Source: Thermococcus indicus
GTDB lineage: Archaea; Methanobacteriota_B; Thermococci; Thermococcales; Thermococcaceae
Length of the DNA stretch: 32,000 nt
Assembly: GCF_006274605.1 (NCBI RefSeq)
Contig: NZ_CP040846.1
Coordinates: 1,029,041-1,061,040 of the forward strand
Reading direction: 5' to 3'
Part shown: positions 12,927 to 32,000 of the stretch, in pieces
How the letters are laid out: every line of letters starts with the position of its first letter
How positions within the stretch are numbered: the first letter of the stretch is position 1
Position numbers and translations under genes: made by a program
Notes under the pieces: model-generated
What the model was told of the DNA's origin: nothing
Seen by the model: the letters and a program-made list of their open reading frames with translations, nothing else
The model's database searches: none

Positions 12927-14350
12927 GCAATCAACCAGCATTCAAGCGGGAAAGCGACACTCTTTTAAAGCCTAAAAACAATACCACACTCTAAAATGAA
13001 GCGGACGGTAACAGTAAAACTACAACCCTCAAAAGAGCAGGAAAAAGTTCTTTCCGAGTTAGCTGACCTTGGAGCCAAAGTCTGGAACCGGGTGAACTAC
13101 CTGAGAAAACAGCAATTCTTCGAGGGCAAAATCGTGGACTTCAATACAACCGAGAAAACCATTTATGAAGAGTTTAAGAGAGAAATCGGTTCTGCCACAG
13201 TCCAGCAAATATGTCGCAAAAACGCGGAAGCCTGGCGGAGTTTCTTCTCCCTCCTCCGGAAAAAACGCAATGGAGAACTACCCGACCGGCTCAAGCCAAA
13301 ACCACCAAACTACCTCAAAGAAGACGGGAGGAGAAAACCGTTAATAGTCCTGAGAAACGACCAGTACAAAATTGACGAGAACAAGCTTATTCTAAAAGGT
13401 CTTGGTAAATTCAAACGCCTCGAAATCCAATTCAAGGGCAGAATACACTTGAAGGGTAAAATGGGGCGGCTGGAAATAACCTACGATGATGTCAAGCGGA
13501 AATGGTACGCTCACGTCAGCTTCACGGTGGGGGAAAAACTTGAAAATGGGGAGTGGGTCAAACTCCCAAGAAAGCCAGAAGGAAGTCTCTCAGCGGGGAT
13601 AGACTTAGGAGTGAACAACCTAATGGCTGTTTACGTGGAGAATGGAGAAAGCTTTCTGGTCAATGGAAGACCGTTAAAGAGCATTGATTTTTACTGGCGG
13701 AAGAAGATTGCCGGGTACCAGTCCAAACTCAATAAATCTGGTGCTAAGACAAGCAGAAAACTCAAAAGAATGCACGATAAAGCGAAACTTCAGGCGAGGC
13801 ACTACATTAACACAGCAGTTAGACAGACTGTTAGGAAACTCTACGATTTGGGAGTCTCAAGAATAGTCGTTGGTTATCCAAAGGGTATTGCTCAAAGCCC
13901 TGGGAAGGGTAAAAAGCAGAATTTCCTCATCTCTCACGTTTGGCGGTTTAATTACGTGATTAAACGCCTCACTGAGGTTGCGGAAGAGTATGGTATCAAA
14001 GTTGTGCTCGTTGATGAGGCTTTCACTTCGAAAACTTGTCCCGTCTGCGGGAAGCCCCACGAGGGGGTGAGGTTTGTTCGTGGTCTTTATTCGTGTCCCG
14101 CAACGGGGCTTATCTTCAATGCCGACTTGGTTGGAGCTTTCAACATTTTGAAGAAGATTGTGAAAACCATAACCCCGAATCTGAGTGGCTTGTACGCTCA
14201 GAGGAGGGGTAACTGGGGGGAGACCCTCCCGGAGGGGTTCGAAGAACCCTTTTCAAAGGTTGCCCTGATGAGAACCCCTCAAACCTCCCTGCCGTTGGCG
14301 AGGGGTTAAACCGTTGGAACCCTCGCCCTCAAGGCGGGGAGGAGGTCAGA
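12882..14350 (+). mobile_element. TnpB-only IS200/IS605-family (IS1341-like) element; boundaries approximate (+/- ~20 nt)
   Basis: It is a single tnpB gene with no Y1 (HUH) tnpA. A nested hairpin spans the tnpB stop at the right end. Both ends share the 7-mers TGCCGTT and GCGGGGA (12901-12919 and 14290-14340). It looks lower in GC than its flanks, and a TTAC lies at 12878-12881. Confidence 0.65.
12996..14309 (+). CDS. tnpB: IS200/IS605-family RNA-guided endonuclease TnpB (OrfB transposase accessory protein)
   Basis: The RuvC-I motif is SAGIDLGVNN, the RuvC-II motif with zinc finger is VLVDEAFTSKTCPVCG, and the RuvC-III motif is FNADLVGAFNILKK. The N-terminus MKRTVTVKLQPSKEQ… is typical of OrfB. 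A TATA-like TTTTAAAG lies at 12963-12970. Confidence 0.9.
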   Translation: MKRTVTVKLQPSKEQEKVLSELADLGAKVWNRVNYLRKQQFFEGKIVDFNTTEKTIYEEFKREIGSATVQQICRKNAEAWRSFFSLLRKKRNGELPDRLKPKPPNYLKEDGRRKPLIVLRNDQYKIDENKLILKGLGKFKRLEIQFKGRIHLKGKMGRLEITYDDVKRKWYAHVSFTVGEKLENGEWVKLPRKPEGSLSAGIDLGVNNLMAVYVENGESFLVNGRPLKSIDFYWRKKIAGYQSKLNKSGAKTSRKLKRMHDKAKLQARHYINTAVRQTVRKLYDLGVSRIVVGYPKGIAQSPGKGKKQNFLISHVWRFNYVIKRLTEVAEEYGIKVVLVDEAFTSKTCPVCGKPHEGVRFVRGLYSCPATGLIFNADLVGAFNILKKIVKTITPNLSGLYAQRRGNWGETLPEGFEEPFSKVALMRTPQTSLPLARG

Positions 14351-25287: not shown

Positions 25288-26169
25288 ATGCGCGGTGTTG
25301 TGGTGCCCCTTGTAACGCCCTTCAACGAGGACTACTCCATTGACTTTCCCGCCCTCGAGGAGCACATCGAGTTTCTCCAGAAGGTCGGCGTCCACGGGAT
25401 ATTCATCAACGCGACAACCGGTGAGTTCACTAGCCTGAACCTGAACGAGCGGAAGCTCCTCGCCGAGAGGGGCAGGGAGCTGGTCAAGTCGGCGTTCTAC
25501 CTGGTCGGTACGGCCTCCTCGAACACCGTTGAGGTCGTTGAGCTTACGAAGCACGCCCAGGACATAGGGGCCGACTACGTCGTGATAGCGCCCCCCTACT
25601 ACTGCCCCCTGAACGACGACGCCCTGTTCACCCACTACTCGACCGTGGCCGAGAGTACGGATATTCCGATCATCCTCTACAACATCCCCTCCTGCGCCAA
25701 CCCGCTCAGCGTTTCCCCCATCAAGCGCCTTGCCCTCGAGTATTCGAACATCTCCGGTGTGAAGGAGACGATTGACAGCGTAAACCATATCCGGGACGTT
25801 ATCCTCGAGGTCAAGGGGGAGAGGAATGACTTCAGGGTCTTCACCGGCCTCGACCAGCACCTCCTGAACACGCTCGTTCTGGGTGGGGACGGGGGGATAA
25901 TGGCCTGCGCCAACTTCGCCCCTGAGGTTCATCTGGCCCTCTGGAGGGCGTTCCATGAGAAGCGGTTTGAGGATGCTTTTGAGCATGCCAGGAGGCTGGC
26001 AAAGCTGTCCAGGGTCTATGACCTTGCCTCATCCTTCGGCTCCGCGATAAAACTTGCCATGTCACTCCGCGGCTTCTCAATAAAACCCGTCCTCAGACCC
26101 CCGTACATGATGGATGGAGACGAAGTGAAGGAGGATATAAGAAAGCTGCTCGCCGGGGTGCTGGGCTGA
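25288..26169 (+). CDS. DapA/dihydrodipicolinate synthase-family class I aldolase (exact substrate not assignable)
   Basis: It has MRGVVVPLVTPF…, NATTGEF, ILYNIP and the Schiff-base Lys context ISGVKE. The ATG at 25288 follows GGTGAT. Confidence 0.8.
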   Translation: MRGVVVPLVTPFNEDYSIDFPALEEHIEFLQKVGVHGIFINATTGEFTSLNLNERKLLAERGRELVKSAFYLVGTASSNTVEVVELTKHAQDIGADYVVIAPPYYCPLNDDALFTHYSTVAESTDIPIILYNIPSCANPLSVSPIKRLALEYSNISGVKETIDSVNHIRDVILEVKGERNDFRVFTGLDQHLLNTLVLGGDGGIMACANFAPEVHLALWRAFHEKRFEDAFEHARRLAKLSRVYDLASSFGSAIKLAMSLRGFSIKPVLRPPYMMDGDEVKEDIRKLLAGVLG

Positions 26170-26202
26170 ATTCAAGCGTCCTTCATGAATCCCCATTGGT
26201 TG

Positions 26203-26215
26203 AAGAAAAAAGAAG
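26203..26215 (-). terminator. Oligo-T terminator after the aRF1 gene
   Basis: The minus strand reads TCTTCTTTTTTCTTC (complement of A6 at 26206-26211), about 15 nt after the stop. Confidence 0.4.
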
Positions 26216-26227
26216 ACGCACAGGAAC

Positions 26228-27475
26228 TCACTGAATCTTGTACCTCAGGAACGCCGCTATTCCGCCGAAGGCCTTGTAGAACTGCTGGCCCTCCTCGGTG
26301 TCGAGGGAGATGACCTCCACCTCGGAGCCGGCCTCCTCCGCCATCTTTATTAGCTCCTCCGCGACGTCCCACTTCTCGAAGTCCAGGTTCTGACTGCCGC
26401 ACTTGGGGCAGTGAGTGAGTTTTTTCCTGTAAACATGGAACTCCTGCTCGCTCATAGTTTTTTCTTCGCTCCAGCCGCAGCTGTTGCACTTGGCCCTGAC
26501 CCTGACCCTGTCATAGCCCTCGCTGATGAGGAGCGTATCGACGGCGCCGAGCTCCAGGGCCTTCCTGACTTCGTTCTCACCGTACGTTATCATCCCTGTG
26601 TCCTTGACGAGGTGCCTGAAGAAGTTCTGTATGAGGTGGCGCTCCTTTATGGCCTCGTGGTCTTTGAGGATGTCGCTGGCCTTCTCGACGAGCTCCTTGA
26701 GGCCGTAGGCCCCGCTGTAGCTGATGTCAACGACGCCGATTATCTTCTTCCTTAGCTCGTGGTGGAGGTACTCGCCGTCTATGAAGTCCTCCTTGGTCGG
26801 TCCCGGGCCGCCTATGATGATGCCCCTCAGCTCGCCCTTCTCCAGGAGGGGGAGGAATGCCTTGTTGGCGTGCTCGGCGATGCGCTTCATGAACTCGTGG
26901 GTCTCCTGCTCACGGATGCGCTCGTAACGCCTGGCCGACTGACCACCTGCCCTGGTCTTACCGGGCACGTTGGAGGTCAGCTCGTCGATGACGTCTATCC
27001 TCTTCCCGCGCAGGAGACCTATGGTGGCTTCGTTCTTCTCAACGGTTATGAGGCCGTAGGCGTCCTTGACGCGGAGCATCTCCTCCAGCGGCTCGGTGAT
27101 GAAGGTCTGGTCGCACCGGTAGAGCCTGACCTTGAGGGGTTCTGGAGGGATTATCGCCCAGAGCTTTATGTCGCTGACGCCCTCCTGCTCGCTGACGTTT
27201 CCGACGAAGAGGGCCAGACCGGTCTCGGGGGTCTTGCGGTAGAGCTTGAGGTGCTGCATCGCCCTCTCAAGGGCACCGAGGACGTTCTTTCGGGTTGACT
27301 TGCTCTTGATGTTCTGGGCCGTCCCGTACTCCTCCCTCAGCTGCTGCATGACCTTGTTCAGATCGTATCCGGCCGGAACGTAGAGGGTCACCAGTTCGGT
27401 GGCTCGACCTCGATAACCCTTCAGCTCCTCGACCTTCTTCTTGAGTTCATACATCTCGGCTGACTTGTGAGACAT
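26228..27475 (-). CDS. prf1: Peptide chain release factor aRF1
   Basis: It has the NIKS motif (TAQNIKSKS), the GGQ motif ([11 protein letters not shown]) and a C-terminal Zn-ribbon-like insertion (CNSCG…CPKCG). The ATG at 27475 ([11 protein letters not shown]…) follows GGGGAGTG. GTG 27484 and ATG 27481 are alternative starts. Confidence 0.9.
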
Positions 27476-27583
27476 GAGCATCACTCCCCTTCAGAACGTT
27501 TTTCCAGCCAGTTTCCGCTACCTGAGAATGAAAAAAGCAGGGAATTTATAAAAGTTTAGGAACAGGGGAGGATTCGGCTAGAA

Positions 27584-27808
27584 TCACGAGATTATTATGA
27601 GGGCTATGACGCCCAGGATTCCTCCTATAGCAACCACCAGAACGTTCAGCGCCGTTAGTGGCACATCCGATATCCCTATCCAGTTCGTGAACCACAGGAT
27701 AATCAGGCCGATTATCGCGTTGGCCAGGAGGTACCTGATTATGGCAAAGCCTACCTTGACCACCAGCAGGATGACCAGGAACGGGAAAAACAGCAACTCT
27801 CCAAGCAT
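27584..27808 (-). CDS. Small two-TM membrane protein, BofA-like (pro-sigmaK processing inhibitor family fold)
   Basis: It is a 74-aa hydrophobic protein. …LLANAIIGLIILWFTNWIG…ALNVLVVAIGGILGV… resembles PF07441. Confidence 0.45.
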   Translation of the reverse strand: MLGELLFFPFLVILLVVKVGFAIIRYLLANAIIGLIILWFTNWIGISDVPLTALNVLVVAIGGILGVIALIIIS

Positions 27809-27900
27809 GGTATTACCTGAAGTAGTTAAAACGAACGGGCTTATTAATCTTTCGCAACATAAATGGGATGCCGGAAGAAATGAATAAATTCAATTTCGAA

Positions 27901-28461
27901 TTATGAAAGTTTTTCAAGGGCTTCCCTTGCTATCTCTCCCAGCGGTACCCACTTCTTGCCCTCGAACGGGAGTATAACCTTATCCTCGACGCCCACGAGC
28001 TCCTCGATGTAGGGCCTTGCATCGGTTATACCAAGCTCCCCCGCGAGGAGTGCCGCGAACCCCTTGAGGTTCCGGCCGCCCTCGACCAGCGCCCTGATTA
28101 TATCGTCACTTACCTCCGCCCGCAGCGCCCTCACAGCTCCTCCAAACTGCCCCGCGAGCTCGTAGGAGAGCACCATGGCGTTTTCCCGGACGTACGGGTT
28201 CCTATCCAGGGTAAGGGCTACAGCCTTTGGGAACACCGTCCTCAGCCGACCCTCTAGAAGCCCGGGCCTCTGCTCTGCCACCATTCCGAGCAGGAGGAGG
28301 GCGTCTCCCCTGATTCCGGGAGAGCTTTCATCCAGAAGTTCAATCAGGCCGTCCAGGGCCTTTTTGTCCTTTACAACAATCGCCAGTGCCTCGTCAAAGC
28401 GCTCCTCCTCGATGAGCTTTTTGATTTTGCCCCTCTTGGAGCCGAATGAAAAGAGTCCCAT
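27901..28461 (-). CDS. HEAT/PBS-lyase-like repeat protein
   Basis: It has repeated helical units with …SPGIRGDALLLLG…, …NPYVRENAMVLS… and …GRNLKGFAALLAGELG…. The ATG at 28461 follows AAGGTGA, and GTG 28470 is an alternative start. Confidence 0.5.
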   Translation of the reverse strand: MGLFSFGSKRGKIKKLIEEERFDEALAIVVKDKKALDGLIELLDESSPGIRGDALLLLGMVAEQRPGLLEGRLRTVFPKAVALTLDRNPYVRENAMVLSYELAGQFGGAVRALRAEVSDDIIRALVEGGRNLKGFAALLAGELGITDARPYIEELVGVEDKVILPFEGKKWVPLGEIAREALEKLS

Positions 28462-28462
28462 G

Positions 28463-28558
28463 GCGGTCACCTTAAGGGGAGGGTTGTCGGGGGAGCGTTA
28501 AAGGTTTTTCGTCCCGATATCCCAAAGATATTTAAACGCGGAGGCACACTTTTTCATA
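28463..28558. repeat. Direct repeat copy A (~95 bp); also the functional divergent promoter/leader between the HEAT gene and the cassette
   Basis: It aligns to 29772-29858 at roughly 85% identity. The identical runs are GAGGGTTGTCGGGGG (15 nt) and CGTTAAAGGTTTTTCGTCCC (20 nt). It contains the TATA-like ATATTTAAAC. Confidence 0.85.
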
Positions 28559-28580
28559 GGCATTGGAATGGTGAACGAAA

Positions 28581-29303
28581 ATGACACCTCCGGCACTTCC
28601 TGTCCAGCATGGTAACTTTGCGGGCCTGGCGTTCCCGTTCGGCAGTATGAATATTCGGCCGTTGCTGGAGGGGATATCGCGGGATGGAGGTGGACTCAGG
28701 GGCGTTTTAGAGGAGTTCAAAAAGAACCTGGGCGAAAAGGAGGGAATTCTGTTCTCCAGGTTGATGGAGTTAACTCCAGATGAACCGAGTGAGGAAGCCT
28801 ATCTTATGGCTATTGAACGTATTTATAGGCTCTTTACCGAGGAGTTCGAAGGGGACATCCATGCAATTGCCGATGCGGCGATTAACGTGGAGATGACTCC
28901 CAACGAACTTGAGGAGGAACTTAGGAACATCATCCTGCCAGAACTCGTTAAACTGAAAGCGGATATTGACCGGGCTTCTGAGCTACTGTTGAAAAAAGCT
29001 CTGGACGGCCGGCTTCCCGAGGAGGAGCTGGAAGAGATGGATGCTGTGGACAGATTCCTTTTCATTGAATCGAACATTCTTGGAATAATCATAGAGACCA
29101 GGAGCCTCGAAACTGCCAGCGAGCTGTCATCCTACTTCCTGCTGCTCATGCTTCGGTTGTTGAAACTTCTCCAGAACAGAAAGTCTCTCACCGAACTGCT
29201 TGAGGACATCAAAATAGTTGCCGGTAAGATAAGGGAAGTTCATCCGACTCCAAGTGCGGTGGATGACTATTTCCTTGATGAACTTCTTGAATCGAATACC
29301 TGA
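28581..29303 (+). CDS. Hypothetical 240-aa acidic, predicted all-helical protein; upstream partner of the MazF-like gene
   Basis: The ATG at 28581 lies 6 nt after GGTGA, and ATG 28647 is an alternative start. It is very Glu/Asp/Leu-rich and I recognise no motif in it. The C-terminus is …VDDYFLDELLESNT. Its stop lies 16 nt before the MazF-like start. Confidence 0.55.
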   Translation: MTPPALPVQHGNFAGLAFPFGSMNIRPLLEGISRDGGGLRGVLEEFKKNLGEKEGILFSRLMELTPDEPSEEAYLMAIERIYRLFTEEFEGDIHAIADAAINVEMTPNELEEELRNIILPELVKLKADIDRASELLLKKALDGRLPEEELEEMDAVDRFLFIESNILGIIIETRSLETASELSSYFLLLMLRLLKLLQNRKSLTELLEDIKIVAGKIREVHPTPSAVDDYFLDELLESNT

Positions 29304-29319
29304 GATTGGAGGTTGTCCA

Positions 29320-29700
29320 ATGGAGCAGGGTGAGATCTGGACGGCCCCGTTCCCTTATTTTGATGAGGATGGAGGGCTGAAATACAAACATCGGCCGGTT
29401 CTTATAATCTCCGGCGACACAATGAACAACAATGGGCGGGATGTAGTAGTCTGCCAGATTTCGCGGTTTGAGCTGAAGCGTGTCTCTGCCCTGTCCCCCC
29501 AGCTTAGGGAGATGGTGAGGGTTATAAAAAACGATGACCTGGACCCAAACACCAGCAGAGGGCTTAGGAACGTGAGTATGATAAAACTCTTCAAGCTGTT
29601 CACAATGCCCAAGACGAAACTCAGAAACGGTAGATACATAGGAAAGCTCAAGGAGGGCGTTATAACGGAGCTGGCAGAAAAGACACGGGAGCTTTTTTAA
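29320..29700 (+). CDS. PemK/MazF-family toxin (putative endoribonuclease)
   Basis: MEQGEIWTAPFPY…HRPVLIIS…DVVVCQIS…IGKLKEGVITEL… parallels the PemK/MazF pattern (MERGEIW…RPVLIV…VVVPVTS…). The ATG at 29320 lies 7 nt after GGAGGT. Confidence 0.7.
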   Translation: MEQGEIWTAPFPYFDEDGGLKYKHRPVLIISGDTMNNNGRDVVVCQISRFELKRVSALSPQLREMVRVIKNDDLDPNTSRGLRNVSMIKLFKLFTMPKTKLRNGRYIGKLKEGVITELAEKTRELF

Positions 29701-29771
29701 GGGCCTGTGTTGGGTCTTTGGTGCATATAGATGTTCCGGCGCCTCCTTACCTCTCCTAATTCAGCACGAAG

Positions 29772-29858
29772 ACGGCCACCTCAAGGGAGGGTTGTCGGGG
29801 GGACGTTAAAGGTTTTTCGTCCCTATGCTCAGGATATTCAAACGCGGAAGCACACTTG
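29772..29858. repeat. Direct repeat copy B (degenerate copy, no gene served in either direction)
   Basis: This is the same alignment as copy A. The TATA equivalent is mutated to ATATTCAAAC. The remnant of the HEAT-gene start (GTGGCCGTC versus GTGACCGCC) is followed by a stop after 7 codons. Confidence 0.85.
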
Positions 29859-29872
29859 TATGGTTTTCTTCA

Positions 29873-30193
29873 TTATTCAGCACCCGTGAGCTCTTTGAAC
29901 TCCTCTTCAACTTCCTGGAGAGTCTCTTTTACCTCCGGCCATTCATCCTCGAAATCCCCTTTTAGCAACTTTCTCCGGGCTTCCATAGCCTCTGCCTTGA
30001 TTTCTTCGGGCGTTAAACTCTTGGCGAGCTCTCTGGCCTCTTCAATCATCATCTGGCCAAGCGTCATGGTAACTGCGAATTTAATGAAGTCCGAACGGCT
30101 CCGAAACTCCTTTCTCTGCACCAATTCGTCAATTTTCTTAACAACATACCCTGGAAGCCTCACCGATATTGGGTATTCAACCCTCTCCGCCAT
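29873..30193 (-). CDS. Ribbon-helix-helix (CopG/Arc-MetJ-type) protein with an acidic C-terminal extension; no adjacent co-directional toxin
   Basis: YPISVRLPGYVVKKIDELVQRKEFRSRSDFIKFAV is a classic RHH beta-strand plus two helices. The start is ambiguous among four ATGs (30205-30193). Confidence 0.65.
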   Translation of the reverse strand: MAERVEYPISVRLPGYVVKKIDELVQRKEFRSRSDFIKFAVTMTLGQMMIEEARELAKSLTPEEIKAEAMEARRKLLKGDFEDEWPEVKETLQEVEEEFKELTGAE

Positions 30194-30496
30194 CCACATC
30201 ATCAACTACAAATAAACTACAATAGTATTTAAACCTACTCTTAAGTCCCAACCCTCCTATCCGCTACCTATATATTTTGAGAGTGTCTTAACCGCTTCTT
30301 TTCCACCAACTACTTTTGCTTTTCCACTTTTATACTCCTCAAACCTCTTTTCAAGGCCTTTAAGTTCCCCATCTACTTTTCCAACGGGTGGGAGGACTGC
30401 ATCGAAACTATTTAAACCTCCTCGTTGCCGTTTTTCTGTTCATATTGCTAGTTAACCAGAACGGGACGGTCTAAAAGAGAAAAATGATAACGGGGC

Positions 30497-31030
30497 TCAG
30501 ATTACCCATCCTTTCTTTTTCAGTTCCTCTAGGAACTCTCTTGGAGTCAGAATCTTGATTCTGCAAACTTCATTCCCATCTTCATCCTCAATGATTACTT
30601 CCCTGGTTTCGGGATCCCGCAGTGAAAGGAGATCGTCTTGATCTTGGGTGATGAGATACTCAACACCGGCATCACAGGCCACTGACAAAACTTCATTATC
30701 CTCCTCATCCTCACTGGCATCTACCCAGCTCTCTGGACTGATTACTACAGACTTTATTTCAAACGCTGTCATAATTGCATAAGGTTTGTACCATAGTAGT
30801 CCCCCGGTTGGCCCTGAAGATTTATTGGCCAGATACCTTTGGACACGACGACTTCCCAATTTGGCACGAAGACGGTCAAGCATCAACTTCGAAGCGAAAT
30901 TGACTATCCTGCCTTCAATCACCAGGCGAACCACGGTTGCTGGCGCCGCTGCCGGTCCTCCTAACGCGGAGGACACGGCGACGTTCAGGTCTATCACTAC
31001 GGGAATAGGCTCGAACTTCCTTCTCGACAC
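30497..31030 (-). CDS. PIN-domain protein (COG1569/TIGR00305-type putative toxin)
   Basis: It has PVVIDLNVAVSSALGGPAAAPATVVRLVIEGRIVNFAS… and …DNEVLSVACDAGVEYLITQDQDDLLSL, which match the PIN_3-type pattern. The GTG start at 31030 is two codons after an in-frame TGA. Confidence 0.65.
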   Translation of the reverse strand: MSRRKFEPIPVVIDLNVAVSSALGGPAAAPATVVRLVIEGRIVNFASKLMLDRLRAKLGSRRVQRYLANKSSGPTGGLLWYKPYAIMTAFEIKSVVISPESWVDASEDEEDNEVLSVACDAGVEYLITQDQDDLLSLRDPETREVIIEDEDGNEVCRIKILTPREFLEELKKKGWVI

Positions 31031-31319
31031 CTTTCAACACCTCCTGGATCTCATCATCACTCGGAGGTGAATCCGGCCCGAGGGCCATCATCTCCAGGAG
31101 GGCTTCATCAGAGGTAGGTACCTTAAACGCGGGAAGCTCGAAGAGTGCTTTTTGGATTGCATAATTGATGAAGTCACTCCTGCTCGGGAAAACCCCCAGG
31201 TCCACGAGGGCCTCTATCTGCTCGTATGCAAATATTGGAATCCTCACGCTGATCAATTTGGTTTTGGGGCCATCCTTCCCCTTCCCAGTCCTCCTGGTTA
31301 TCTCCAGAGAGTATGCCAT
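30915..31319 (-). CDS. Ribbon-helix-helix (CopG-type) putative antitoxin upstream of the PIN gene
   Basis: KLISVRIPIFAYEQIEALVDLGVFPSRSDFINYAIQKAL is an RHH motif. The ATG at 31319 follows GGGGGTGG, and ATG 31385 is an alternative start. Its frame reads 116 nt into the PIN gene. Confidence 0.6.
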   Translation of the reverse strand: MAYSLEITRRTGKGKDGPKTKLISVRIPIFAYEQIEALVDLGVFPSRSDFINYAIQKALFELPAFKVPTSDEALLEMMALGPDSPPSDDEIQEVLKGVEKEVRAYSRSDRPERRRVLRVRRTGSGASNRGSPGD

Positions 31320-31523
31320 CCAAACCACCCCCACAAGTACCTCGTAATACGTTTGTATTACATCTTTTAAAAACTTTTTGGTCATGTATCTGTCAAGAAG
31401 TTTAAGAATTAAGAACGCAGTTCTTAGAGAAAGTGTGAGAAGAAAATGTTACAGGGAGCCAGGTCTCACCCGCCAAAAGGTCCTCACTAAAGAACTCCTT
31501 GGAGATCCATAAGAGATCGCGCC

Positions 31524-31922
31524 TCAGCCCGCCCCAAGCGAGCAGATTATAACCTCGCACGCGCCCGCGTTGCCGTCCATGCAGTCGTTGTAGATTTTCT
31601 CAAGAGTCTTGCCGTCCGTTGAATATTCTATAACCTCCGGATAGGTGCCGGTGTAGGATGTCTTATCGACGGTGCAGGTGGTCTTGCCGTCCGAGATCGT
31701 GAGGGTTACCGTTTTGGACTTGAGTTCCTCCCAGAGCTCGTTGGCCTTCAGCTGGACGACGATGTACTGGGCGTCGTTCTGAAGCTGGAGAACGTTCACC
31801 TGCTCGCCGGTCTCTATGGTGTGGGGAAGGACGCCGTTGTTGTAGGCGAAGAGAGTTGCCAGAACGAGCACGAACATCCCGGCGAGCATGAATAGGTACT
31901 CCAGAGAAGCCTGGGCGCGCAT
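31524..31922 (-). CDS. Class III signal peptide protein (archaeal type IV pilin-like)
   Basis: The N-terminus MRAQASLEYLFMLAGMFVLVLATLF matches the prepilin-peptidase site (K/R-A/G-Q-x-S-x-E-Y) plus a hydrophobic helix. The ATG is preceded by AGGTGATC. Confidence 0.7.
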   Translation of the reverse strand: MRAQASLEYLFMLAGMFVLVLATLFAYNNGVLPHTIETGEQVNVLQLQNDAQYIVVQLKANELWEELKSKTVTLTISDGKTTCTVDKTSYTGTYPEVIEYSTDGKTLEKIYNDCMDGNAGACEVIICSLGAG

Positions 31923-32000
31923 TGGAGATCACCTGACAGGAAAATATAGAAAAAAGTATTCAATGCTTCACTGGTTGTTCCACCAATCTACAATGGCCTT

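Follow-up and report, generated by a model that had tools for sequence, protein, structure and literature searches.

We analysed a 32,000-nucleotide (nt) stretch of the genome of Thermococcus indicus (contig NZ_CP040846.1, positions 1,029,041 to 1,061,040; the whole stretch is called the window below), with a focus on two adjacent genes at 28581-29700. The upstream gene, here named ORF240, encodes an acidic protein of 240 amino acids (aa), and the downstream gene encodes a toxin of the PemK/MazF family, referred to here as PemK. Judging from sequence comparison and structure prediction, the two genes probably form a type II toxin-antitoxin operon with a new antitoxin family, and there is a good chance, on the sequence evidence, that ORF240 is the cognate antitoxin of PemK. 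This reading is carried mainly by the constant position of ORF240 homologues directly before PemK genes and by a C-terminal motif whose presence follows the type of the toxin.

Gene layout and putative operon signals

The two genes and the signals around them are arranged as follows.

28517-28531, plus strand: inverted repeat ATATC-N5-GATAT, a candidate operator read from the sequence
28531-28536, plus strand: TATA-like TTTAAA abutting the inverted repeat, a candidate archaeal promoter read from the sequence
28570-28574, plus strand: Shine-Dalgarno-like GGTGA, 6 nt 5' of the ORF240 ATG, kept in Thermococcus sp. 21S7
28581-29303, plus strand: ORF240, putative antitoxin gene (open reading frame call), ATG at 28581, TGA at 29301-29303, 240 aa
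29304-29319, plus strand: spacer of 16 nt between the two genes, with GGAGG at 29308-29312 and without a T-run
29320-29700, plus strand: PemK/MazF toxin gene, ATG at 29320, TAA at 29698-29700, 126 aa, isoelectric point (pI) 9.6
29693-29698, plus strand: T6 run overlapping the PemK stop codon, putative oligo-T terminator

The ORF240 product is 100% identical to the T. indicus hypothetical protein FH039_05795 (P0001), and the product of the second gene is annotated in this organism as a PemK/MazF-family toxin. The spacer, with its GGAGG and without a T-run, indicates co-transcription and coupled translation of ORF240 and PemK, and since a T6 run stands at the end of PemK, the layout is that of a bicistronic operon. 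Oligo-T tracts serve transcription termination in archaea, and the T6 run is likely the terminator of the operon. At the other end, 28517-28536 may hold the operator and the promoter, the promoter role of TTTAAA being based on the archaeal layout of transcription factor B recognition element and TATA box. Both elements are kept in Thermococcus sp. 21S7 except that the spacer of the repeat is one base shorter there. The palindrome adjoins the TATA-like box, yet nothing ties it to ORF240. An Rfam search of 26000-32000 found no RNA family. Two adjacent co-oriented genes with the antitoxin first are the layout of type II toxin-antitoxin systems, and here the antitoxin would be unusually large.

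An in-frame Met23 would yield a protein of 218 aa instead of 240 aa. The longer form is preferred because GGTGA lies 6 nt upstream of its ATG, this ATG is kept in Thermococcus sp. 21S7, and the ratio of nonsynonymous to synonymous substitution rates (dN/dS) between the two organisms is 0.24 over the first 49 codons. The frame is open and free of indels in both organisms, with an overall dN/dS of 0.19. These sequence comparisons indicate that ORF240 is a real gene under purifying selection.

The downstream gene encodes a PemK/MazF-family toxin

The sequence and the predicted structure indicate that the downstream gene product is a MazF/PemK-fold endoribonuclease, an ordinary member of the PemK/MazF family with predicted activity. 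It matched the Pfam family PF02452 (PemK_toxin) with an E-value of 6.5e-14 and 52.5 bits (cut-off 23.1), over positions 1-108 of the 109 positions of the profile. A profile built from eight family members also matched the MazF proteins of Staphylococcus aureus, Bacillus subtilis and Mycobacterium tuberculosis in the Protein Data Bank (PDB) over their full length, with a best E-value of 6e-6. The profile alignment to these MazF structures predicts the following catalytic pair.

29392-29394, plus strand: Arg25
29461-29463, plus strand: Ser48

In the alignment to S. aureus MazF, Arg25 stands opposite the catalytic Arg, and Ser48 opposite the Thr of the AAIT segment. Arg25 is invariant in 8/8 aligned toxins, and the position of Ser48 is Ser or Thr in all eight. 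The catalytic roles of the equivalent residues are taken by us from the literature on the B. subtilis and S. aureus enzymes. The AlphaFold2 model of PemK had a mean predicted local distance difference test score (pLDDT) of 79.5, and in a Foldseek search of the PDB all top-50 matches were MazF, Kid, MoxT or EndoA structures, with a probability of 1.00 and template modelling (TM) scores of 0.58-0.76. PemK is also under purifying selection, with a dN/dS of 0.12 against Thermococcus sp. 21S7.

These results bear out the initial annotation, made from the DNA letters alone, which had described a toxin-like gene at 29320-29700 with PemK/MazF hallmarks and a gene for 218-240 aa ending 16 nt upstream of it. 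That annotation had named a lack of the SH3-like CcdB/MazF fold as a reason to give up its reading; the predicted structure of PemK has this beta-barrel fold.

ORF240 is an acidic, predicted helical protein outside known families

ORF240 has a pI of 4.52, a net charge of -22 and 17.1% Leu, and it ends in an aromatic and acidic stretch (...AVDDYFLDELLESNT), in agreement with its first description as acidic and Leu-rich with such an end. Its AlphaFold2 model, built from a 10-sequence alignment, had a pLDDT of 74.8 and a predicted TM score of 0.75, and is all-helical without any beta strand. Nine main helices lie between residues 40 and 237, while residues 1-37 are disordered. The helical body at residues 40-220 carries a net charge of -18. 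The tail is modelled with lower confidence (pLDDT about 60), with a short predicted helix at residues 229-237.

ORF240 had no match in Pfam or NCBIfam at E<=1. When 11 family members were searched against Pfam at E<=5, no AbrB/SpoVT (PF04014), RHH/CopG (PF01402), HEPN or DUF4065 (PF13274) domain was found, and there was no consistent weak match in Pfam or PHROGs. The neighbouring gene 29873-30205 does match RHH_1 in the Pfam search, so such domains are detectable. The R-x(4-6)-H motif of HEPN proteins is absent from ORF240, and its relatives have this motif sporadically, at non-equivalent positions. Thus, the earlier statements that the protein lacks RHH, AbrB and HTH domains and the HEPN motif held up. 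Among PDB sequences, the ORF240 profile found only designed helical repeats, with E>0.1. A Foldseek search with the model, which had been proposed at the outset, gave best values of E about 1.5 and TM <0.3 in the PDB and BFVD, taken as no match.

A small family linked to PemK in hydrothermal Euryarchaeota

To delimit the family, 1.84 billion representative proteins were searched exhaustively with HMMER at E<=1e-3, which gave 11 matches, one of them spurious. This exhaustive search was needed, as word-indexed homology searches recovered only T. indicus and Thermococcus sp. 21S7. The spurious match, P0011, is a plakin-repeat protein of 6527 aa from a vertebrate and was rejected as a compositional or repeat artefact. 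P0009 was also set aside as evidence. It is a protein of 143 aa found on many short contigs (L028-L030; Logan runs SRR252062xx/SRR252064xx), and its differences from P0006 are systematic (L>F, P>L/F, S>F and A>V), as expected from C-to-T converted or deaminated reads. Its sequence therefore appears to be a bisulfite-like converted copy, and it is probably an assembly artefact and not a natural variant.

Ten distinct lineages were found in which a family member lies directly 5' of a PemK gene.

T. indicus, this locus: ORF240 and PemK
Thermococcus sp. 21S7, L024: pair at the locus equivalent to that of T. indicus
Pyrococcus horikoshii OT3, L002: protein of 232 aa (BAA30283; UniProt O58913) and PemK (BAA30282)
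Thermococci metagenome-assembled genome, L017/L025: pair
Thermococcaceae metagenome-assembled genome and a related metagenome contig, L018 and L026: pair, two lineages
Methanothermococcus sp., L019: pair
Divergent vent-metagenome lineage P0010, L016: pair
Divergent vent-metagenome lineage P0013, L020-22: pair
Internal-deletion variant P0008, L027: pair with a 21-nt spacer

Every member that carries the DDY motif of the tail and has a recoverable context directly precedes a PemK gene. In all homologous pairs the spacer is 3-28 nt long and contains GGAGG. The linkage holds down to about 26% identity, and the pair is intact across genera and classes (Thermococci, Methanococci). The pairwise identities of the two genes co-vary, with a Pearson coefficient of 0.94 over 36 pairs that are not independent of each other. 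The upstream protein is always more diverged than the toxin, as antitoxins usually are. The genes on either side of the pair vary from lineage to lineage, with DUF257, aspartate kinase and DUF2299 genes among the downstream neighbours; therefore, the ORF240-PemK pair is the conserved unit. A conserved third gene was considered and rejected, as each lineage has other downstream neighbours and Thermococcus sp. 21S7 lacks the RHH gene at 29873-30205.

No ORF240 homologues were found in plasmid, phage and IMG/VR collections, and literature searches yielded no description of the family or of the P. horikoshii protein BAA30283. Our results indicate that a small, uncharacterised family, restricted to hydrothermal Euryarchaeota, has ORF240 as its founding member. 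The initial annotation had suggested a new antitoxin family, or else a module with additional sensor and chaperone roles, and had asked how far homologues share the gene neighbourhood. The first suggestion gained support from the lack of a relative among curated families and from the PemK linkage in ten lineages, and no evidence was found for sensor or chaperone roles. Membership of a housekeeping family without linkage to MazF, which had been named as the outcome that would speak against this view, was not observed.

A proposed toxin-specific tail and a separable body

Three parts of ORF240 can be told apart from the alignments and the model.

28698-29240, plus strand: helical body, residues 40-220, from the secondary structure of the model and the hhalign alignment to PIN-linked relatives
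29094-29300, plus strand: C-terminal module, residues 172-240, comprising the last two body helices and the tail; the sole part kept in L007-L012
29262-29291, plus strand: tail motif DDYFLDELLE, residues 228-237, a predicted short helix and proposed toxin-binding element

The invariant columns of the PemK-linked members concentrate in the last third of the protein, where the tail has the consensus DDYF[LI][DE]E[LF]LE. No variation occurs at D228, D229, Y230, F231, E234, L236 or E237 within the closer set (alignment A4), and D228, D229, Y230 and E234 are invariant across 9/9 PemK-linked members.

Two distant relatives, P0014 and P0015, lack the DDYF-type motif, and their tails are unrelated. 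Their downstream partners, 1-2 nt away, are not PemK proteins but PIN-like proteins of 218 and 232 aa, encoded at L023 875-1531 and L013 4725-5423. In an hhalign comparison, the PemK-linked and PIN-linked subfamilies aligned with 97.6% probability and E=3.5e-12 over columns 44-223, and the alignment ends before the tail. The partners mutually conserve Asp6, Glu42, Asp167/Asp170 and Thr192-x-Asp194 and contain an insertion of about 100 aa. Such an Asp/Glu/Asp/Asp pattern is expected of a PIN nuclease with an insertion. The partners of P0014 and P0015 are thus probable PIN-like nucleases by sequence, perhaps from an unusual family of split or inserted PIN toxins. Across the family, the PemK-tail motif correlates with the toxin type, being present with PemK and absent with PIN-like partners.

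In another lineage (L007-L012; locus L007 700-1312), the upstream gene is cut to its C-terminal 66 residues, with a TTG start, and ends 16 nt before an intact PemK gene of 136 aa. A tblastn search of this lineage with a full-length homologue found only residues 168-237 before the intact PemK. Over its last 55 codons, the shortened gene has a dN of 0.083 and a dS of 0.68 against a full-length relative. These contigs are metagenomic and Thermococcales-like, and a short out-of-frame remnant (…AIILETKDSEV…) lies just 5' of the truncated gene.

The shared body, the differing tails and the truncation in L007-L012 fit the usual antitoxin design with a toxin-specific C-terminal segment and a separable N-terminal module, which here would be a large acidic helical domain instead of a small DNA-binding domain. 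For the aromatic and acidic tail itself, which the initial annotation had likened to the toxin-wrapping tails of MazE-type antitoxins, the chances that it is the toxin-binding element seem evenly balanced, based on sequence conservation and on analogy with known antitoxins. The idea has indirect support from the distribution of the DDYF-type motif and from the lineage that kept just the C-terminal 66 residues. In the mechanism that we propose, the acidic C-terminal segment (about residues 172-240) would bind the basic PemK dimer, and the invariant amphipathic DDYF[LI][DE]E[LF]LE helix, aided by the two preceding helices, would fill the RNA groove and the active site of the dimer. This blocking mode would be like that of the C-terminal parts of MazE-type antitoxins. 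The body (residues 40-220) would be a module of its own, able to join with tails specific to different toxins. It is unlikely to bind DNA because, with its net charge of -18, it is too acidic; a role in oligomerisation, stability control or other regulation or signal sensing is more probable. It is rather unlikely that the 180-residue body is a new fold that hyperthermophilic archaea use as a transferable platform for regulation or sensing with nuclease toxins, with swappable PemK- or PIN-specific tails, and that it controls toxin release, for example upon virus infection or proteolytic stress. If so, the body would correspond, in archaea, to antitoxin domains of the hyperpromiscuous or trigger-sensing kind.

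Alternative explanations

Several observations weigh against ORF240 being the antitoxin of a PemK-type pair with an exchangeable body. DNA-binding domains are common in type II antitoxins, being found in most of them, though they are not universal, and ORF240 has no RHH, AbrB, HTH or Phd domain in Pfam or NCBIfam. Small AbrB or RHH genes lie near several of the pairs (29873-30205 in the window; L016 1249-1437; L021 2-109). The homology of P0014 and P0015 to ORF240 alone is marginal (E about 1e-3), while the profile-profile score is strong. The N-terminal PIN matches of their partners fall below the Pfam threshold (E=3e-4 and 1.4e-3), and these partners have no sequence relative in the PDB. Finally, the truncation belongs to one population, as the six contigs do not differ from each other over 644 nt and were counted as one event.

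The small genes near the pairs suggest another arrangement, in which ORF240 would be a co-transcribed accessory such as a regulator, scaffold or sensor, while PemK is checked by a small antitoxin encoded elsewhere, for which the RHH gene 29873-30205 or an AbrB/MazE-type protein are candidates, or is a solitary MazF. The lack of a known antitoxin domain in ORF240 would fit this, as would an RHH protein with an acidic and aromatic C-terminus encoded convergently 173 nt 3' of PemK, an AbrB/SpoVT gene that lies convergently 95 nt 3' of PemK in L016 and precedes the pair in L021, and a PF04014 gene 2 kb away in P. horikoshii. However, no such small gene is conserved with the pair. In Thermococcus sp. 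21S7, where the pair occupies the same locus, an IS607-like remnant replaces the RHH gene, and the downstream neighbours elsewhere are unrelated, as listed above. The convergent orientation is also atypical for a cognate antitoxin, and only ORF240 is invariably upstream at a spacing of 3-28 nt, with a tail type that follows the toxin type. We therefore regard an accessory role as improbable. It is very improbable that the locus is a decaying relic, with a PemK weakened by Ser in place of Thr and ORF240 an unrelated conserved hypothetical gene. Ser48 does stand where characterised MazF enzymes have the catalytic Thr, the family is very small and patchy, and the upstream gene is degraded in L007-L012. 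Against this, both genes are under purifying selection, Arg25 and the Ser/Thr position are conserved in all aligned toxins, and the pair is intact in both archaeal classes. Moreover, RNase activity in vitro has been seen for many archaeal MazF homologues: in a screen of 186 MazF homologues, 164 of them archaeal, 132-133 were active enzymes (PMC13107127).

An extension of the antitoxin reading would make the pair an anti-virus or abortive-infection module, in which ORF240 would inhibit PemK and also act as a trigger sensor whose body detects a viral or stress signal and frees the toxin. The body is large, conserved, independent of the toxin type and dispensable in one lineage, which fits a regulatory layer over a minimal tail, and the location suggests a variable island, with other toxin-antitoxin genes, tRNA genes, and insertion sequence (IS) or integrase remnants nearby. 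On the other hand, no defence model was matched in PADLOC-DB 2.0, where ORF240, PemK, P0015 and a PIN-like partner hit zero families at E<=1. The absence of homologues from the phage, plasmid and IMG/VR collections and the lack of structural similarity to sensor domains in the PDB and BFVD also speak against it, and only a small chance is left to this function.

Comparison with known toxin-antitoxin systems

The pair resembles MazEF and PemIK (Kis-Kid) in its toxin family, fold and catalytic Arg and Thr/Ser, in the antitoxin gene coming first in one operon with a short spacer, and in the combination of an acidic antitoxin with an acidic and aromatic end and a basic toxin. In contrast, ORF240 is about three times as long as MazE or PemI, has no AbrB/SpoVT (PF04014), RHH or other recognisable DNA-binding module, and is, by prediction, globular and all-helical without a structural neighbour. 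MazF partners outside the MazE type have been reported before. Guilt by association linked MazF to AbrB, RHH and XF1863 family proteins (Makarova et al., 2009; PMC2701414), and a later survey listed AbrB, CopG, DUF3018, winged HTH, DUF104, DUF2281, Phd and RelB (PMC3879964), in line with the "mix and match" principle of toxin-antitoxin pairing (PMC3337138). The ORF240 family is not among the partners in these two surveys. The second of them required an upstream open reading frame of 40-90 aa, so a partner of the ORF240 type was excluded (PMC3879964). Similar to ORF240, the XF1863, DUF3018, winged-HTH, DUF104 and DUF2281 partners are unrelated to MazE; they differ from it in being small, and none of them matches ORF240 in Pfam.

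Large or helical antitoxins exist in other systems. The epsilon antitoxin of epsilon/zeta (PezAT-type) systems is all-helical and has no DNA-binding domain of its own; it is a three-helix bundle of about 90 aa, the toxin zeta is a kinase, and in omega-epsilon-zeta systems a separate RHH protein is responsible for regulation. The toxin of these systems is unrelated to PemK, and no sequence or fold similarity to ORF240 was detected. Panacea (PanA, DUF4065) is a fairly large globular helical antitoxin domain that is paired with several unrelated toxin types. Similarly, the ORF240-type body pairs with PemK and with PIN-like partners. However, no PF13274 match was found among the 11 members at E<=5, only two partner types were seen, and the family is tiny and archaeal. 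The PIN-linked branch recalls VapBC, as P0014 and P0015 precede proteins of 218-232 aa with an N-terminal PIN-like match and conserved acidic residues; it differs in that the PIN match is sub-threshold, an insertion of about 100 aa is present, and the upstream partner is not a VapB of the AbrB, RHH or Phd type.

Genomic context and origin

The third-codon-position G+C content is 0.56-0.62 in the ORF240-PemK pair against 0.84 in the neighbouring aRF1 gene. In other lineages, the pair adjoins tRNA genes (L018, L026), an integrase-like fragment (L025) or the IS607-like remnant (Thermococcus sp. 21S7). The pair was probably acquired horizontally, and its patchy distribution is typical of mobile toxin-antitoxin cassettes. 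The features around it are listed below.

27901-28470, minus strand: HEAT-like gene, 189 aa, with sub-threshold HEAT-repeat matches; divergent from the cassette and kept in Thermococcus sp. 21S7
28477-28551, unstranded: left copy of a repeat, in the divergent, putative promoter region between the HEAT-like gene and ORF240
29785-29857, unstranded: right copy of the repeat, 3' of PemK, specific to T. indicus
29873-30205, minus strand: RHH_1 gene, 110 aa (E=1.9e-5), with an acidic and aromatic C-terminus (…DFEDEWPEVKETLQEVEEEFKELTGAE), convergent with PemK and without an adjacent toxin of its own
30497-31385, minus strand: second toxin-antitoxin-like pair, with a 177-aa PIN_3/TIGR00305 protein (30497-31030) after a 156-aa RHH_8/YlcI-like protein (30915-31385)

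The imperfect direct repeat of about 80 nt brackets the cassette (families D2 and D3, 93% and 82% identity, spacing about 1307 nt), and a 19-mer inside the left copy has exactly two occurrences in the window where 0.01 would be expected. Thermococcus sp. 21S7 has a highly conserved version of the left-copy region but no right copy, and the homology breaks at 29766. We considered the repeat as attL/attR of the cassette and rejected this, since the right copy is missing in Thermococcus sp. 21S7 despite the pair being at the same locus. The right copy is probably not part of the functional module. Speculatively, it would point antisense, from the minus strand towards the 3' end of PemK and from the plus strand towards the RHH gene.

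At the site of the RHH gene, Thermococcus sp. 21S7 has a chimeric IS607-like remnant composed of HTH_17, partial Resolvase and a TnpB TNB domain (L024 6650-7393). The two open reading frames of the second pair overlap by 116 nt, one start probably being mis-set, and this pair is also kept in that organism. The AbrB/SpoVT (PF04014) genes at L016 1249-1437 (minus strand) and L021 2-109 (plus strand) adjoin the two most divergent PemK-linked pairs, and could be separate regulators or mere neighbours in toxin-antitoxin islands. The HEAT-like gene comes after the aRF1 gene (26228-27484) and a BofA-like gene (27584-27808). Elsewhere in the window, the segment 13001-14000 has a G+C content of 0.45 against 0.55 for the window and a strongly positive AT skew of 0.255; it lies in or near an open reading frame of 437 aa (12996-14309) and may be another foreign segment.

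Implications

MazF toxins are among the best-studied toxin-antitoxin components, and little is known of MazF control in archaea. Archaeal MazF enzymes have been mined as thermostable RNA-cutting tools, and the 2026 screen left antitoxins aside (PMC13107127). The toxin described here is of a known kind; what would be new is the oversized antitoxin family, and its points of note are the separable body across two toxin classes and the lack of a structural relative. The scope is limited, as the family is tiny and ecologically narrow, and new antitoxin families found through gene neighbourhood are not rare. If the proposed pairing is true, the C-terminal segment of 20-70 residues could be used as a thermostable and specific inhibitor when such RNases are produced or have to be controlled, and surveys limited to short upstream open reading frames would miss partners of this kind. 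ORF240 would then be a new antitoxin family without recognisable relatives, possibly with a new fold, and would show an antitoxin naturally divided into a tail specific to the toxin and a body reused with MazF- and PIN-type partners.

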